DNA of 27,210 nt from Escherichia coli (lineage in GTDB: Bacteria > Pseudomonadota > Gammaproteobacteria > Enterobacterales > Enterobacteriaceae), in assembly GCA_005388305.1 (NCBI GenBank), contig GCA_005388305.1_4327.1; one strand, 5' to 3'. Under the pieces are notes generated by a model. It was not told the DNA's origin. It saw nothing but the letters and a program-made list of their open reading frames with translations, and made no database searches. The position numbers and the translations under genes were made by a program. Each line of letters opens with the position of its first letter. Position 1 is the stretch's first letter. This document shows positions 5,613-27,210 of this stretch, piece by piece.

Positions 5613-5634
5613 AAGGCCCCAAACGGGGCCTTTT
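5613..5634. terminator. bidirectional rho-independent terminator between convergent tailspike and helicase transcription units
   Basis: Hairpin AAGGCCCC-AAAC-GGGGCCTT followed by TTTT on the + strand and preceded by an A-rich tract (T-run on the - strand); lies just after the tailspike stop. Confidence 0.6.
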
Positions 5635-11119: not shown

Positions 11120-11139
11120 AAGGCCCAATGAAGGGCCTT
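11120..11139 (-). terminator. intra-operon hairpin (putative partial terminator/attenuator) between the SSB-like gene and the polymerase
   Basis: AAGGCCC-AATGAA-GGGCCTT stem-loop in the 60-nt gap between the two genes; same stem sequence as the terminators at 5613 and 26948; only a short T-run follows on the - strand. Confidence 0.35.
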
Positions 11140-11838: not shown

Positions 11839-11867
11839 ACTATAATAGCTAACTATTCAGGTGTCAA
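11839..11867 (-). promoter_or_regulatory. sigma70-like promoter (TTGACA-17-TATAGT on the - strand) inside a copy of the conserved 30-bp element
   Basis: + strand GAACTATAATAGCTAACTATTCAGGTGTCAACAC; - strand -35 TTGACA (11867-11862), 17-bp spacer, -10 TATAGT (11844-11839); ~50 nt upstream of the SSB-like ATG. Confidence 0.55.
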
Positions 11868-13589: not shown

Positions 13590-14111
13590 TTATTCTTCTT
13601 CGAAATACTTGTTCTTGATTGCTGTCAGGCGCTCCAGATACTCAGCCAGGTCTTCGTCTTTAATCGCTGCAATCTTCATCTTCTTACCGGTGAACTCTTC
13701 CAGCAGTTCGTCAGAATCGTCGCACGCGGCCTCGCTTGGGCCTTCGTTAATCGCATCGTCGATAGCCTGAATCTGGTCGCGCAGAGACTGGTAATCGACT
13801 TCTTCTTTCTCTTCTTCCGGCTCTGGCGTTGGTTCCTCTACTTTGTCCTTACGCGGCTTGCGCTTCGGCTTCTCTTCTTCTGCGGGTTTAGCGTCAACGG
13901 TGTCTTCACCTTCTACCGGGATTTCTTTCGCCTTCTCGACTTCTTCAAGTGCTTTAGCCAGCTCTTTTTTAACTGTTTCTACCCCCGTGACCGCGACGTC
14001 AACAGTCAATTCACCTACAGATTTGCTAGTCGGTTGTTTCACACTGTTTGCAGCAATCAGTTCGTGGGCGACTACGAAACGTTCCAGTAATACTAAGAAT
14101 TTCTCTAACAT
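13590..14111 (-). CDS. highly acidic hypothetical protein, 173 aa
   Basis: First gene downstream of the promoter at 14143-14171; GAGAGGAGA RBS; extremely D/E-rich with one Lys/Arg patch (KPKRKPRKDK). Confidence 0.6.
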   Translation of the reverse strand: MLEKFLVLLERFVVAHELIAANSVKQPTSKSVGELTVDVAVTGVETVKKELAKALEEVEKAKEIPVEGEDTVDAKPAEEEKPKRKPRKDKVEEPTPEPEEEKEEVDYQSLRDQIQAIDDAINEGPSEAACDDSDELLEEFTGKKMKIAAIKDEDLAEYLERLTAIKNKYFEEE

Positions 14112-14142: not shown

Positions 14143-14171
14143 ACTATAATAGTGAACTATTCACTTGTCAA
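14143..14171 (-). promoter_or_regulatory. sigma70-like promoter (TTGACA-17-TATAGT on the - strand) inside a copy of the conserved 30-bp element, in a divergent intergenic region
   Basis: + strand TAACTATAATAGTGAACTATTCACTTGTCAATGG; - strand -35 TTGACA (14171-14166), 17-bp spacer, -10 TATAGT (14148-14143). A second partial copy of the element (GGTACTATTCACATATCAA, 14197-14215) lies just before the rightward XRE gene. Confidence 0.55.
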
Positions 14172-14235
14172 TGGGCTTTTCTAAAATAATTAATATGGTA
14201 CTATTCACATATCAACTGACTAAGGAGTAATTGAC

Positions 14236-14451
14236 ATGCAACCATCTGAACTAGGCATCCGTGTAGAACAGCGCCGTAAAGAACTCAGTATTTCCCAGCG
14301 CCGTCTGGCTGTCCTGACCGGCGTTTCCCAGGGTGCAATTAACCAGCTTGCACTCGGGGTAACGCGGGACGTCCGCCCAGCAACGCTGTTTAAACTGGCG
14401 GAAGTGCTAGAGGTAGACGCCAAGTGGCTGGCGTTCGGTGAAGGGGCTTAA
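14236..14451 (+). CDS. XRE-family helix-turn-helix transcriptional regulator (Cro/CI-like), 71 aa
   Basis: HTH signature QRRLAVLTGVSQGAINQLALG; AAGGAG RBS before ATG 14236; followed immediately by a terminator; the only rightward gene inside the leftward operon. Confidence 0.8.
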   Translation: MQPSELGIRVEQRRKELSISQRRLAVLTGVSQGAINQLALGVTRDVRPATLFKLAEVLEVDAKWLAFGEGA

Positions 14452-17458: not shown

Positions 17459-17487
17459 ACTATAACACCTACAATAACTAAACACAA
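17459..17487 (-). promoter_or_regulatory. putative sigma70-like promoter of the leftward operon (TTGTGT-17-TATAGT on the - strand) within a degenerate copy of the conserved element
   Basis: + strand CAACTATAACACCTACAATAACTAAACACAACC; - strand -10 TATAGT (17464-17459), -35 TTGTGT (17487-17482). Confidence 0.35.
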
Positions 17488-17492
17488 CCTAT

Positions 17493-17519
17493 TGACAAAA
17501 TAAAATGTAGCTGTAAAAT
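17493..17519 (+). promoter_or_regulatory. putative rightward sigma70-like promoter (TTGACA-15-TAAAAT), back-to-back with the leftward promoter
   Basis: TTGACA at 17493-17498, TAAAAT at 17514-17519; the 15-bp spacer is shorter than optimal. Confidence 0.35.
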
Positions 17520-17752
17520 CAACGTATCGAAGGACCTTAGTTCAGAATTACTTAGAAACATTATTCTTAAGTCTCGGGTACTTAAAGCCCCGCCTTAAAG
17601 CGGGGCGCTAAACAGTACTCTTGGTAACGTTAGTATCTAAGTTTCCTCAAAGTAACAGCAAGTGGCAAGAAAGCCCCCGTCTATTTAAATTTTACCCTCC
17701 TTCATAAGTACCTGATAATTAAAAGTTTCTATAGTTGCCGTGAGTGAGGTAG

Positions 17753-17811
17753 AGAGTACTTCACTCCGCTGGGGTGGGCTAACGCCCACCCACTGCGTTG
17801 CGTACTCTTTT
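17753..17811 (+). terminator. compound hairpin followed by a T-tract (putative terminator or structured RNA element) in the non-coding control region
   Basis: Outer stem AGAGTAC (17753-17759) / GTACTCT (17802-17808) enclosing inner stem GGGTGGGC-TAAC-GCCCACCC (17772-17791), followed by TTTT (17808-17811). Confidence 0.4.
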
Positions 17812-17850
17812 AAGAAACGAAAGAATCACAACGGCAACGTAACTATTTTC

Positions 17851-17879
17851 TTGCACACCCAAACATAATAGGGTACTAT
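17851..17879 (+). promoter_or_regulatory. sigma70-like promoter (TTGCAC-17-TACTAT) inside a copy of the conserved element, driving the rightward small-gene block
   Basis: -35 TTGCAC 17851-17856, spacer containing CATAATAG, -10 TACTAT 17874-17879, then AGGAG RBS and ATG 17914. Confidence 0.5.
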
Positions 17880-17913
17880 TCACTTATCGAAACGAGACAG
17901 AGGAGTGAGGGTT

Positions 17914-19307: not shown

Positions 19308-19336
19308 TTGCACACTAAGATATAATAGGCTACTAT
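19308..19336 (+). promoter_or_regulatory. sigma70-like promoter (TTGCAC-17-TACTAT) inside a copy of the conserved element
   Basis: -35 TTGCAC 19308-19313, spacer containing TATAATAG, -10 TACTAT 19331-19336; RBS GAGAGGAGAG and ATG 19368 follow. Confidence 0.5.
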
Positions 19337-19367
19337 TCATTTACACGAGCGAGAGGAGAGACAGAAT

Positions 19368-19496
19368 ATGAAAGATTATAGCGAAGTAACTTTAGGTGAG
19401 TTGCAGGACGAGTACGAAGATATGCGCTACCCGTTCATCTGCGACGGGGACTACAACGGCGTCTATAACGGGGTGAGCGAAGAATATGAACACTAA
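19368..19496 (+). CDS. hypothetical acidic protein, 42 aa (below ORF-track cutoff)
   Basis: ATG 19368 with strong RBS directly after the promoter; overlaps the next gene by 11 nt. Confidence 0.4.
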   Translation: MKDYSEVTLGELQDEYEDMRYPFICDGDYNGVYNGVSEEYEH

Positions 19497-23546: not shown

Positions 23547-23641
23547 TGTACATCCCGCCCAATCCCCTTATATAATCCCTTTAGACGCGTAGGGCGCGTC
23601 TGGTTCGCTCTGATGGTCAGACGCATATGCAAGGGGATTCT

Positions 23642-24190
23642 ATGAAGCTGAAACTCAAGCAGCCATCGCCAGAGGTGGTGCAAGCTGCACATGAAGAAGC
23701 TGTTAGCGCAAACCGCCGCCGCCGTAAACGACCGCGCGGTAAACAGAGCCTTTATCAATCGTCCCGTAATTCCGCAGCGTTGTGGGACCCGGACTATTGC
23801 GACGCGTTAATCGAGTTCTTCGACCGCACGTCGTGGGAACTCGTGCCTACGTCTAAGGGTGACGAACGCCCACTGATTCAGGATAAACCTCCGTCACTGG
23901 CCCGCTTCGCCCGGCACATAGGCGTCACTATCCCGATTATTAAGCTGTGGCTGCGCGAGATTCCCGCATTTGCAGAAGCATACGAGACAGCACAGGCACT
24001 GGAAGAGGCGTACTTCACTGAGACAGGGGCCGCTGGCATCTCTGCTACGTTTGCTGCCGCTAAGCTGGGCCTTAGCAAAGAGAAACCAGTTGAATCGACC
24101 GAAGAAACAGCACCTACCGAGATTATTTTCAGTGTTGCAGAGCCTGTAGGTAAAATCGTAACAACGAACATGGGCGAGGTAGAGGAATGA
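23642..24190 (+). CDS. terminase small subunit, ~182 aa
   Basis: Directly upstream of and ATGA-coupled to the large terminase subunit; basic N-terminal patch (RRRRKRPRGK) and HTH-like segment (SLARFARHIGVTIPIIKLWLRE). Start ATG 23642 with AAGGGGA RBS (the ORF track uses ATG 23627). Confidence 0.55.
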   Translation: MKLKLKQPSPEVVQAAHEEAVSANRRRRKRPRGKQSLYQSSRNSAALWDPDYCDALIEFFDRTSWELVPTSKGDERPLIQDKPPSLARFARHIGVTIPIIKLWLREIPAFAEAYETAQALEEAYFTETGAAGISATFAAAKLGLSKEKPVESTEETAPTEIIFSVAEPVGKIVTTNMGEVEE

Positions 24191-25437
24191 GTATTCAGCT
24201 ATCGGCCCCTCAGGCATTGTTTCTGAATTGCGATAACAAATACAAAGCCTATGTCGGCGGTTTCGGCAGCGGCAAGACATTTGTCGGCTGCCTTGACCTG
24301 CTTACGTTTATGCTCAAGCATCCAGGTACGCGCCTGGGTTACTTCGGCCCGACATACCCGGCTATCCGTGACATCTTCTACCCGACATTTGAGGAAGCCG
24401 CTAACCTGCTCGGCCTCGATGTGCTGGTTAAATCTGGCGACAAAGAAGTCGTGGTTACTCGCGGTAAGACGGTGCTCGGTACAGTTATCTGCCGTTCTAT
24501 GGATAACCCTGGTTCGATTGTGGGCTTCAAAATCGCCGCAGCGTGCGTGGATGAGCTCGATGTATTGAGCCGCGAGAAAGCTGAGCTGGCGTGGAACAAA
24601 ATTGTAGCCCGTATGCGACTTGTAATCCCCGGCGTAACTAACCACATCTCTGTCACCACGACGCCAGAAGGGTTCAAGTTCGTCTACGCCAAGTTCAAAG
24701 AGAACCCGACGCCGAGTTACTCGATGGTGCAGGCATCCACACACGAGAATGCGCGGTTCCTGCCGCCGGATTACATCAGCTCGCTGACCGAGACTTATCC
24801 GGCGCAGTTGATTAACGCGTATCTGAATGGTGAGTTCGTCAACCTTACCTCCGGCAGCGTGTATTACGCATATGACCGCCGTAAGCACCGCAGCAAAGAG
24901 GTAATTCAACCGGGCGACACGTTGTACATCGGGCAGGACTTCAACGTTACGAAGAACGCAAGCGCCGTGTATGTGCAACGTAAAGACGGCTGGCACGCGG
25001 TGGCAGAACTGAAAGGTCTGTTTGATACGCCGGACACCGTGCGTGTAATTACTGAGAAGTGGAAGTCGCAGGGCCACCGCATAGTCGTTTACCCGGACGC
25101 CAGCGGCAAGAACCGCAAGACCAACTCGGCGTCAATCTCAGATATTGCGTTACTCCAGCAGGCCGGTTTCGATGTTCGCGCTAAATCCGCCAACCCTCCG
25201 GTTAAAGACCGTGTTTTAGCCGTGAATACCGCACTAGAAAAAGGTAAGCTGTGGGTTAATGACCACTTATGCCCCGAGATAGCGAAGACGCTGGAGCAGC
25301 AGGCATACGATGATAACGGAGAGCCAGCTAAAGATGGCATCATTGACCATATGGCGGATGCTCTCGGCTATCCTGTAGTTTACGAGATGCCGGTGGTTAA
25401 ACCAGTAATCAACATCCCGGTGACTTTCGCACTTTAA
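24187..25437 (+). CDS. terminase large subunit (ATPase plus nuclease), 416 aa
   Basis: Walker A YVGGFGSGKT, Walker B-like AAACVDELD, C-terminal acidic nuclease-type residues (LYIGQDFN, IIDHMADALG). Confidence 0.85.
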   Translation: MSIQLSAPQALFLNCDNKYKAYVGGFGSGKTFVGCLDLLTFMLKHPGTRLGYFGPTYPAIRDIFYPTFEEAANLLGLDVLVKSGDKEVVVTRGKTVLGTVICRSMDNPGSIVGFKIAAACVDELDVLSREKAELAWNKIVARMRLVIPGVTNHISVTTTPEGFKFVYAKFKENPTPSYSMVQASTHENARFLPPDYISSLTETYPAQLINAYLNGEFVNLTSGSVYYAYDRRKHRSKEVIQPGDTLYIGQDFNVTKNASAVYVQRKDGWHAVAELKGLFDTPDTVRVITEKWKSQGHRIVVYPDASGKNRKTNSASISDIALLQQAGFDVRAKSANPPVKDRVLAVNTALEKGKLWVNDHLCPEIAKTLEQQAYDDNGEPAKDGIIDHMADALGYPVVYEMPVVKPVINIPVTFAL

Positions 25438-25448
25438 GAGGACAACAA

Positions 25449-26933
25449 ATGGTTTCCGCAAACATTAACGCAGGGCAAGGGCAGAACGTTAAAACCCGCC
25501 ACCGCCAGTACGAAGAGTATTTCCCTAAGTGGCAGAAGGTGCGACATGCGCTTTCTGGCGACCTGACATCGTATCTACGTGACGTCAGTAGGAACGAGCC
25601 GGACCCGGTTTACGGTCGCCAGCGTCAGGCTGAATACGAAGCGGGGGCAATTTGCTACAACTTCACCAAGCGAACGCTTTCAGGCATGGTCGGCAGCGTA
25701 ATGCGCAAAGACCCCGAGATGATTATTCCGTCTCAGATGGAATACCTGACCACTAACTGTGACGGGTCGGGCGTTGGCCTGTGGCAGCACGCACAGGATA
25801 CTCTGTATGAGATTGATGCTGTTGGTCGCGGTGGCTTGCTGGTTGACGCCCCCGCGGTAGAAGTAGCTACCATGGCAGAGCAAAACGAGGGTTTACTAAA
25901 CCCAACAATCGCTTTCTACACCGCAGAGAATATCATCAACTGGCGTCTCCAGCGCGTCGGGTCTGTTAATCGTGTGGTTATGGTTGTATTGCGTGAGGAA
26001 TACGAGTACACCGATGGCGCGGATGAGTTCAGCCCCAACTACGGCGAGCAATACCGCGTCCTTGATATTTTCGAAGGCCAGTATCGCCAGCGTCTGTACC
26101 GCTTTAACCAGAAAGGTGCACTGATGGAAGGTGGCTATATCGAAATATTCCCGAAACTCGGTAATATTCCGGTCGGGGTGATTCCGTTCACATTCATTGG
26201 TGCAGGGAATAACGACTCAACCCCTGACGATGCACCTTTGCTGCCGTTGGCTGAACTTAATATCGGGCATTTCCGTAACAGCGCGGACAATGAGGAGTCC
26301 AGCTTCGTTGTGGGCCAGCCAACCTTGTTCATTGCGCCGGGTGAGAACATGAGCATGGCTCAGTGGAAAGAAGCTAACCCTCACGGAGTGCGCATGGGGT
26401 CGCGTTCAGGCCATAACATCGGTTACGGCGGCAATGCGTTTCTGGTCCAGGCCGGTGAGAACAACCTAGCCAAGCAGAACATGTTGGATAAAGAGAACCA
26501 GGCAATCCAGATTGGTGCACAGCTTATTACCCCGACGCAGCAAATCACCGCGGAATCGGCACGCCTGCAACGCGGCGCTGATACGTCCGTTATGGCAACA
26601 ATCGCACGTAACGTAAGCATGGCGTATACCGATGCGTTGCGCTGGGTCGCGGGTATGCTTGGGATTAGCGACAGCACTGAAATTGAGTTCAAACTGAACA
26701 TGGAGTTCTTCCTGCAACCAATGACCGCCCAGGACCGCGCTCAGTGGATGGCGGACATTAACGCGGGCCTGTTACCGGCTACCGCTTACTATGCTGCGTT
26801 GCGTAAGGCGGGGGTAACTGACTGGACAGACGAGGACATTCAGAACGCTATCGAGGATGCGCCGCTGCCGTTAGATGCTGCCGCTCCGGTAGCAGGAGAG
26901 ATTCCGCAGTCGGCGCGGCAACAACAGGAGTAA
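25449..26933 (+). CDS. portal protein (putative), 494 aa
   Basis: Size and position immediately downstream of the large terminase subunit; AAGAGGA RBS identical to the tailspike's; no motif-level confirmation. Confidence 0.6.
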   Translation: MVSANINAGQGQNVKTRHRQYEEYFPKWQKVRHALSGDLTSYLRDVSRNEPDPVYGRQRQAEYEAGAICYNFTKRTLSGMVGSVMRKDPEMIIPSQMEYLTTNCDGSGVGLWQHAQDTLYEIDAVGRGGLLVDAPAVEVATMAEQNEGLLNPTIAFYTAENIINWRLQRVGSVNRVVMVVLREEYEYTDGADEFSPNYGEQYRVLDIFEGQYRQRLYRFNQKGALMEGGYIEIFPKLGNIPVGVIPFTFIGAGNNDSTPDDAPLLPLAELNIGHFRNSADNEESSFVVGQPTLFIAPGENMSMAQWKEANPHGVRMGSRSGHNIGYGGNAFLVQAGENNLAKQNMLDKENQAIQIGAQLITPTQQITAESARLQRGADTSVMATIARNVSMAYTDALRWVAGMLGISDSTEIEFKLNMEFFLQPMTAQDRAQWMADINAGLLPATAYYAALRKAGVTDWTDEDIQNAIEDAPLPLDAAAPVAGEIPQSARQQQE

Positions 26934-26947
26934 GTAAAAAAAAAACT

Positions 26948-26975
26948 AAGGCCCCATAACAGGGCCTTAGTTTTT
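26948..26975. terminator. bidirectional rho-independent terminator between the portal gene and the convergent small gene
   Basis: AAGGCCC-CATAACA-GGGCCTT hairpin with an A-run upstream and TTTTT downstream. Confidence 0.6.
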
Positions 26976-27165
26976 AGTTAAGGTACGCTGCTCGCCCCGC
27001 CATATACCCCGCGAGATACATTTTAAACCATTCGTTGCATTCACCGTTCTCATAGTACGCACCAATTTTCCACATTTCTTTTGTTTCACGATCAAAGCGG
27101 AAGCGCCCCTTGCAGTTCTTCTCAAATAATTCCATGATTTCATACCATTCTTTAGAATATAACAT
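26974..27165 (-). CDS. hypothetical protein, 63 aa, AT-rich leftward gene (moron-like)
   Basis: ORF on the strand opposite the packaging genes; GGAGA RBS; copy of the conserved promoter element upstream; terminator downstream; visibly more AT-rich than its neighbours. Confidence 0.5.
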   Translation of the reverse strand: MLYSKEWYEIMELFEKNCKGRFRFDRETKEMWKIGAYYENGECNEWFKMYLAGYMAGRAAYLN

Positions 27166-27181
27166 TTTTGTATCTCCTCGT

Positions 27182-27210
27182 TTCGATAACTGAATAGTAC
27201 ACTATTATAT
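27182..27210 (-). promoter_or_regulatory. copy of the conserved promoter element on the - strand (partial, cut by the window end)
   Basis: Reverse complement reads ATATAATAGTGTACTATTCAGTTATCGAAA, near-identical to the copy at 17864-17893; -10 TACTAT would be 27200-27195; the -35 lies beyond the window. Confidence 0.35.

Follow-up and report, generated by a model that had tools for sequence, protein, structure and literature searches.

Small accessory genes inserted among the core genes of bacteriophages have been described in several forms. Morons of lambdoid phages, for example gene 15 of HK97 (PMC3594210), are horizontally transferred stretches of extra DNA relative to close relatives, with a deviant GC content, placed inside the late structural operon between a promoter-like element and a terminator; their rationale is expression from the repressed prophage for the benefit of the lysogen. 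In T4-type phages, PeSL cassettes (Arbiol et al. 2010, PMC2839356) consist of small variable ORFs without known function, placed between terminators and repeated motifs of early promoters; the promoter makes up one composite motif with a GC-rich stem-loop, and about 50 copies are present. Homology ends where these motifs lie, which fits a shuffling of cassettes through recombination from motif to motif, and some of the cassettes lie inside virion modules. The accessory regions of enterobacteriophages (Silas et al., bioRxiv 10.1101/2023.04.06.535777) are hotspots where unrelated, non-essential genes are swapped between core genes, and many of these genes act in counter-defence. Finally, the exo-xis and nin regions of lambda encode non-essential proteins of about 60 aa that are expressed early (Orf60a, Orf61, Orf63, Ea8.5).

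The window analysed here, a stretch of 27,210 nucleotides taken as a whole, is 97-98% identical at the DNA level to K1H-type Kagunavirus siphophages (Guernseyvirinae), a group reported to be without lysogeny genes. An earlier note on this DNA had described, at its right end, a small gene with the anatomy of a moron. The features of this end (last 3.6 kb of the window) are as follows.

23627 to 24190: small terminase subunit gene.
24187 to 25437: large terminase subunit (TerL) gene.
25449 to 26933: portal protein gene (DUF4055/phrog_145).
26917 to 26933, plus strand: left junction of the exchanged segment, that is, the last portal codons and stop (...SARQQQE*), from megablast and reading of the sequence.
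26936 to 26975, both strands: bidirectional intrinsic terminator, from scan and folding.
26974 to 27165, minus strand: ORF63, a 63-aa accessory gene with an ATG start, whose soluble, aromatic-rich product belongs to an uncharacterised family.
27174 to 27179, minus strand: Shine-Dalgarno sequence GAGGAG, 8 nt before the ATG of ORF63, read from the sequence.
27182 to 27210, minus strand: promoter/operator-like element and 5' UTR, cut by the end of the window, from repeat statistics.

ORF63 lies after the portal gene and runs against the packaging operon, as the earlier note had stated. Its GC content is 41.1%, compared to a mean of 50.8% for the window (sd 4.8%, 192-nt windows) and 53.9% for the adjacent packaging genes; only 3.8% of the 192-nt windows are as AT-rich, so that the compositional deviation announced from inspection of the letters holds quantitatively. 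A short frame that has no database family could be a chance product of an AT-rich regulatory spacer. Between ORF63 and its homolog in phage SHAK7693, however, 23 codons differ, 21 of them synonymously and 2 non-synonymously, and the comparison with the copy in L009 gives 31 synonymous and 7 non-synonymous codon differences. This excess of synonymous changes, together with 208 homologous clusters, a Shine-Dalgarno sequence at ideal spacing and a structural model with a pLDDT of 97, shows that ORF63 is a real gene under purifying selection. To a fortuitous reading frame we give a negligible probability, the conservation pattern already refuting it. An overlapping ORF in another frame (26967 to 27143, 58 aa) had no support and was disregarded.

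The hairpin below ORF63 is made of A10 (26936-26945), a stem CTAAGGCCC / GGGCCTTAG (26946-26954 and 26962-26970) and T5 (26971-26975), and the stop codon of ORF63 (26974-26976) overlaps its base. The terminator scan extends the stem to 16 pairs at 26941 to 26975, and the computed folding energy is -21.0 kcal/mol on the plus strand and -22.2 kcal/mol on the minus strand. Because the hairpin folds on both strands and is flanked by A10 and T5, it qualifies as the bidirectional terminator that the earlier note had proposed. On the ORF63 strand the hairpin is followed by U10, and termination is predicted to be stronger for ORF63's own transcript than for the portal transcript. The motif AAGGCCC-N6-GGGCCTT is found three times in the window, for 0.03 copies expected. 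The two other copies are at 5613-5632 and 11120-11139; one of them separates the genes for DNA polymerase and SSB, and the other coincides with a change of sign in the GC skew.

In the 15 closest phages (K1H and 14 others, with portal DNA 95-99% identical), ORF63 is absent and the portal leads straight to the head-morphogenesis gene; a single one of 157 related phage records contains ORF63, at a different locus. Megablast homology to the K1H-type phages (97% identity) stops around 26921-26925, a few codons (about 10 nt) before the portal stop. Read from the sequences, the portal tail in the window resembles those of SHAK7693 and of L004, a Kagunavirus-like metagenomic contig, and not that of K1H (...SAQQKDPTQQ*), which places the left junction of the non-K1H segment inside the final portal codons. 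The claim of a moron-like insertion thus stands: relatives with a 98%-identical portal are without the gene, and the site holds unrelated genes or none, as detailed below. The position between the portal and Mu-F-like genes is the one argument for ORF63 being a core morphogenesis or packaging factor that works with the portal and head genes, and the earlier note had named conservation in all relatives, together with a matching composition, as the sign of such a factor. The opposite pattern is clearly observed. ORF63 is missing from the closest relatives, it is on the opposite strand with a deviant GC content, its site is occupied elsewhere by unrelated genes, and other phages encode the same protein among their early, immunity and recombination genes. 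A core role is extremely improbable and in our view effectively refuted; ORF63 is an accessory gene, which would be dispensable for virion assembly.

To define the site of insertion, ten loci from Kagunavirus and Jerseyvirus were compared. Their order is conserved: the portal stop codon, a terminator AAGGCCCC-loop-GGGGCCTTAGTTTT, one antisense cargo gene, a promoter block of roughly 100 nt on the Mu-F side, in which the repeated element is in backward orientation, and the Mu F start codon. The cargos are the following.

This phage and L004, antisense: ORF63, 63 aa.
SHAK7693, antisense: 173 aa, annotated as RusA-like.
VSt10, antisense: 67 aa.
STP03, antisense: a different protein of 67 aa.
EF2-1, antisense: 94 aa.
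ST20, antisense: 55 aa.
K1H, K1ind3 and Bas74: empty slot, in which a terminator and some 70 nt separate the portal gene from Mu F.

By blastp the cargos are mutually unrelated, so that besides ORF63 the ten loci contain five others, or none. These others are sporadic too, and shared with unrelated phages. Whatever the cargo, VSt10, STP03, EF2-1, ST20, SHAK7693 and L004 all have the AAGGCCCC...GGGGCCTTAGTTTT motif behind the portal gene. On the Mu-F side, homology between phages begins at the Mu F start codon, includes TTGC..-N17-TACTAT, reaches the Shine-Dalgarno region and is lost immediately ahead of the start codon of each cargo. Since the breaks fall at the cargo start codons and the flanking elements are kept whatever the cargo, promoter-like element and terminator belong to the slot and were not brought by ORF63. 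This refines the moron-like view, as the regulatory elements are constant features of a swappable slot.

A second antisense slot with the same promoter and terminator motifs is found in Kagunaviruses between a Hoc-like gene and the Rz spanin gene (L002 4400-4740 in SHAK7693, L043 2480-2850 in Bas74, and about 4330-4838 of L001 in K1H). A homolog of the VSt10 cargo sits in this Hoc|Rz slot in Bas74, next to the same motifs, and the portal|Mu F and Hoc|Rz slots therefore exchange cargo. In K1H, the Hoc|Rz gap of 500 nt is unannotated and contains a core of the repeated element (L001 4502, minus strand); a small gene has likely been overlooked there.

The comparisons thus establish the architecture of the slot and the turnover of its cargo, and the region studied would be one occupied state of a Guernseyvirinae accessory slot between the portal and Mu-F-like genes. 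That ORF63 is an accessory cassette in this conserved slot, expressed early and independently, is the explanation we consider probable. The expression part of this proposal depends on the element at 27182 to 27210. It contains a candidate -10 box, TACTAT (27194-27199), with TATAAT (27204-27209) as an alternative, and a palindrome, AATAG-N4-CTATT (27193-27206); the -35 box is expected around 27217-27222, beyond the end of the window. As a 29-mer, it recurs at 17863 to 17891 on the other strand with 3 mismatches (0 occurrences expected), and its 18-nt core, ATAATAGNGTACTATTCA, is present in six copies in the window, at 11842-11859, 14146-14163, 14190-14207, 17865-17882, 19322-19339 and 27191-27208, for 0.06 expected. 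The contexts of the other copies are given here.

17851 to 17891, plus strand: closest paralogous copy, heading a plus-strand cluster of small early ORFs from 17905, with a 5' UTR (TTATCGAAACGAG) common to the ORF63 copy.
19308 to 19339, plus strand: TTGCAC-17-TACTAT, before a small ORF at 19368.
14146 to 14207: two tandem copies; the copy at 14190 (plus strand) heads the 71-aa Xre-like HTH gene (14236 to 14451), whereas for the copy at 14146 the minus strand gives the better reading (TTGACA-17-TATAGT), in front of the gene at 13590 to 14111 (phrog_3127).
11842 to 11859: minus-strand TTGACA-17-TATAGT, upstream of the genes for a gp2.5-like SSB/annealase and for DNA polymerase.

In complete copies (L004, SHAK7693, Bas74, and 17851 and 19308 in the window), TTGCAG, TTTACA or TTGCAC is separated by 17-18 nt from TACTAT, after which come a leader of about 20 nt, a Shine-Dalgarno sequence and the ATG. 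The same consensus was predicted by PHIRE as a phage promoter, tgAATAGTa-ccTATTat-T, in Kagunavirus fBC-Eco01 (PMC9825357). The hexamers match 7-8 of the 12 sigma-70 consensus positions. The earlier note had called this stretch a copy of a conserved promoter element. The repeat is genuine; as for promoter activity, we infer it from position and conservation, since the -35 box is off the window and a strict sigma-70 consensus scan makes no call, including in relatives where the whole region is visible. Rfam searches of the region returned sub-threshold noise only.

With this reservation, the element looks like an early lytic promoter. Host RNA polymerase would start at TTGC..-17-TACTAT and, as the element heads replication and early gene clusters, ORF63 would be made early and independently of the late packaging and head operon around it. 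The terminator would end the ORF63 transcript before this could extend, in antisense, into the portal gene.

The palindrome, for its part, looks like an operator. The copies fall into two reading classes, TTGC..-17-TACTAT pointing at the downstream gene, and TTGACA-17-TATAGT, which is read from the opposite strand and whose spacer contains the palindrome, an arrangement that suggests a common operator for one repressor over early and replication promoters. The Xre/Cro-like gene at 14236-14451 lies on the plus strand, antisense among minus-strand replication genes, and its two tandem element copies are 44 bp apart; its 71-aa product is a candidate for an autoregulated repressor acting on the palindrome.

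The slot itself might be the functional unit, with incidental cargo. The terminator would then insulate the terminase-portal transcript, the promoter block, with its palindrome as an operator, would re-initiate or regulate the transcription of Mu F and of the head genes downstream of it, and ORF63 would ride on a divergent promoter. Terminator and promoter block are indeed conserved whatever the cargo, within 100 nt of the Mu F start; empty slots still hold the terminator and a remnant of the palindrome; and a plus-strand TCGATA-17-TATAT. matches the register of the copies read on the minus strand at 11842 and 14146. The promoter block could also, or equally, fire rightwards into Mu F. However, purifying selection on ORF63 is strong, and unrelated phages that do not have this slot have retained the gene; the cargo therefore has a function of its own. 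We find an incidental cargo somewhat unlikely; a regulatory role of the slot is compatible with the accessory-cassette reading and does not exclude it.

The distribution of ORF63 demonstrates its mobility. A tblastn search of 50,697 phage records found it in one only, SHAK7693 (97% aa identity), where it is antisense in the second slot, between the Hoc-like and Rz spanin genes. In the metagenomic contig L004 it occupies the same portal|Mu F slot (95% aa), and it is found at 84% aa identity in metagenomic contigs of another lineage (L005-L008), whose TerL is only 23% identical. For L004, SHAK7693 and this lineage, identity is 95%, 97% and 84% for ORF63 but 81%, 82% and 66% for the flanking portal; in every comparison the small gene is more conserved than the flanking core genes. 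Such a pattern reads as the signature of a recent horizontal spread under purifying selection. In IMG/VR, copies at 87-89% identity are found in unrelated backbones, one converging on a Terminase_3-type TerL, one following RdgC, and another antisense between tail-tube and tape-measure genes, while a 67% identical copy follows a CI-type repressor. The cargo has thus travelled horizontally between unrelated phages. A search of 5,426 complete E. coli genomes gave no DNA match to ORF63, which is therefore not a common prophage gene there; a scan of genome contigs returned two distant relatives only.

What could the protein do? It is soluble and near-neutral (pI 6.2, gravy -0.74), with 22% aromatic residues, and its sequence contains neither a signal peptide nor a membrane segment. 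The neutral charge argues against a DNA mimic. An exhaustive HMMER search collected the 208 representative clusters (E<=1e-3), mostly stand-alone proteins of 60-70 aa, with the consensus TKE.Y..M..FEK...R.DRE.K..W..G..YQ.G..N..F..F..GY..GK. With the family alignment, AlphaFold2 produced a model with a pLDDT of 97.1 and a pTM of 0.83, in which a predicted helix (5-17) is connected by a small bridge with a short helix (29-32) to a second long helix (41-62). ORF63 has no match in Pfam, PHROGs, NCBIfam, PADLOC, PDB or BFVD. The several cysteines mentioned in the earlier note are in fact two (C18 and C43), neither of which is conserved in the family, and the motif of Cys and aromatic residues is not a family feature; a cysteine-based metal site was rejected on this ground. 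Searches of the literature for the sequence or its accessions returned nothing, and the protein sequence is not in the supplementary files of Silas et al. (bioRxiv 10.1101/2023.04.06.535777).

Distant homologs in temperate phages and prophages are encoded in early operons, after CI-like repressors or a cro-like gene, between ERF/YqaJ/SSB and xis/int, after primases, or beside DNA methylases. The common theme is that of early, accessory, recombination or immunity regions; in the neighbourhood analysis no partner gene was recurrent. A few relatives have C-terminal extensions (one HTH_31, one weak DUF551, others unannotated), and these fusions were set aside as a clue to function, giving no coherent hint. 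A 123-aa relative from a Castellaniella prophage (P0167, L036 6001-6372) is labelled 'CdiI immunity protein domain-containing' in UniRef. This label, which may refer to the C-terminal extension, is without Pfam support even at E<=10 and was kept as a lead only. Another relative, P0024 (264 aa), contains the domain twice in tandem and ends in a hydrophobic segment (WLVWLGLVGLGIFIV), which suggests a membrane-anchored variant.

Three functions are considered: binding of a host or competitor protein, auxiliary replication, and exclusion or defence. Because the element heads early genes and the distant homologs are in early operons, we infer an early, non-essential cytoplasmic binder: ORF63 would be a compact helical protein that serves anti-defence or host takeover by binding and modulating a conserved protein of the host or of a competitor. 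This assignment is tentative, its chances being a little under even. A broader version, in which ORF63 founds a small early phage protein family (at least 208 clusters) whose fold is confidently predicted but resembles no other structure, neutralising a conserved host factor such as a defence effector, and in which the two Guernseyvirinae slots are a dedicated cassette exchange between virulent and temperate phages, we hold to be doubtful.

An auxiliary factor of phage DNA replication or recombination, not directed at the host, would fit with homologs adjoining RdgC, ERF, YqaJ, SSB, RecT, a Prim-Pol helicase and a D5-type primase, and with the promoter class common to the SSB, polymerase and primase genes of the window. 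No single one of these neighbours recurs, however, the neutral protein has no nucleic-acid-binding fold match, and it is dispensable in close relatives with identical replication modules; we judge such a role unlikely.

Superinfection exclusion, which the earlier note had mentioned, or another defence activity would agree with the moron-like anatomy and with the homologs located directly downstream of CI-type repressors, a situation analogous to rexAB. The lack of a membrane segment or signal peptide and of a PADLOC family match, the absence of the gene from the E. coli genomes searched and the reported lack of lysogeny genes in the phage group all run against this suggestion, which has found no support and which we rate as very unlikely.

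Compared to the morons of lambdoid phages, ORF63 is likewise extra DNA of deviant GC content, horizontally transferred, inside a late structural operon and with a terminator on its distal side; at the right distance upstream is the PHIRE-type element with its partial sigma-70 match. Three differences appear. The phage group is virulent, and because it is reported without lysogeny genes, the rationale of prophage expression probably does not apply; the putative promoter is a repeated early-type element that belongs to the phage itself; and promoter-like element and terminator are fixed in the slot instead of being carried by the gene. The 'classic moron' of the earlier note therefore holds for the extra DNA, the composition, the terminator and the promoter-like element, but not for the ownership of the regulatory elements and probably not for prophage expression, and ORF63 is probably best called moron-like, not a moron in the strict sense.

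The resemblance to PeSL cassettes lies in the repeated sigma-70-like early motif and terminators around small variable ORFs, the homology breaks at the motifs and the location in a virion module; here, the motif, weaker than the sigma-70 consensus, is found at both variable slots in relatives. In contrast to PeSL, the GC-rich terminator is separate from the promoter motif, beyond the opposite end of the cargo, the only palindrome in the motif is a short (5-bp), AT-rich and more operator-like one, and the genome has a handful of copies. With the accessory regions of enterobacteriophages, the slot shares its unrelated variable genes between the same two core genes, observed here in ten loci, and differs in receiving one gene at a time, always antisense. 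Finally, ORF63 is similar to the lambda exo-xis and nin proteins in its size, non-essentiality and presumed early expression, and in temperate relatives its family occupies an equivalent position between recombination genes and xis/int. Homology was rejected: the best hit of the family profile in six-frame translated lambda (hmmsearch) has an E-value of 4.9, and ORF63 has no match to Pfam DUF1382 or DUF1317.

Accessory hotspots and morons are well known, and nothing here is surprising in kind; the interest is mainly in an uncharacterised family of proteins predicted to be well folded, and in a cleanly delimited insertion slot. Kagunaviruses are under development as therapeutic and synthetic-biology chassis phages, and a naturally tolerated slot with built-in promoter and terminator is a ready site for payload insertion. 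Determinants of host range or counter-defence that distinguish near-identical phages could also be sought there. The high conservation of ORF63 across unrelated enteric phages suggests a conserved target, and the gene is therefore a reasonable candidate for anti-defence or host-takeover screens.

Some minor observations were made along the way. The record of SHAK7693 (OR594180.1) is named vB_EcoM and filed under Autographiviridae/Kayfunavirus; its genes from terminase through portal to head are collinear with those of Kagunavirus siphophages, at about 82% identity, and the taxonomy line looks wrong. In K1H (L001 2793-2828) and K1ind3 (L033 2782), the head-morphogenesis start is annotated 33 nt upstream of MSLLTS, the conserved N-terminus used for this gene in other phages, and overlaps the remnant palindrome (ATAGTATGCTATTA); the annotated genes are probably over-extended. 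At 17460-17860 of the window, about 400 nt between divergent early genes contain no convincing ORF, have a GC content of 38-41%, and include several promoter-like matches and two GC-rich hairpins (GCCCCGC..GCGGGGC near 17589-17608 and GGGTGGGC..GCCCACCC near 17771-17791). This may be a control or origin region.
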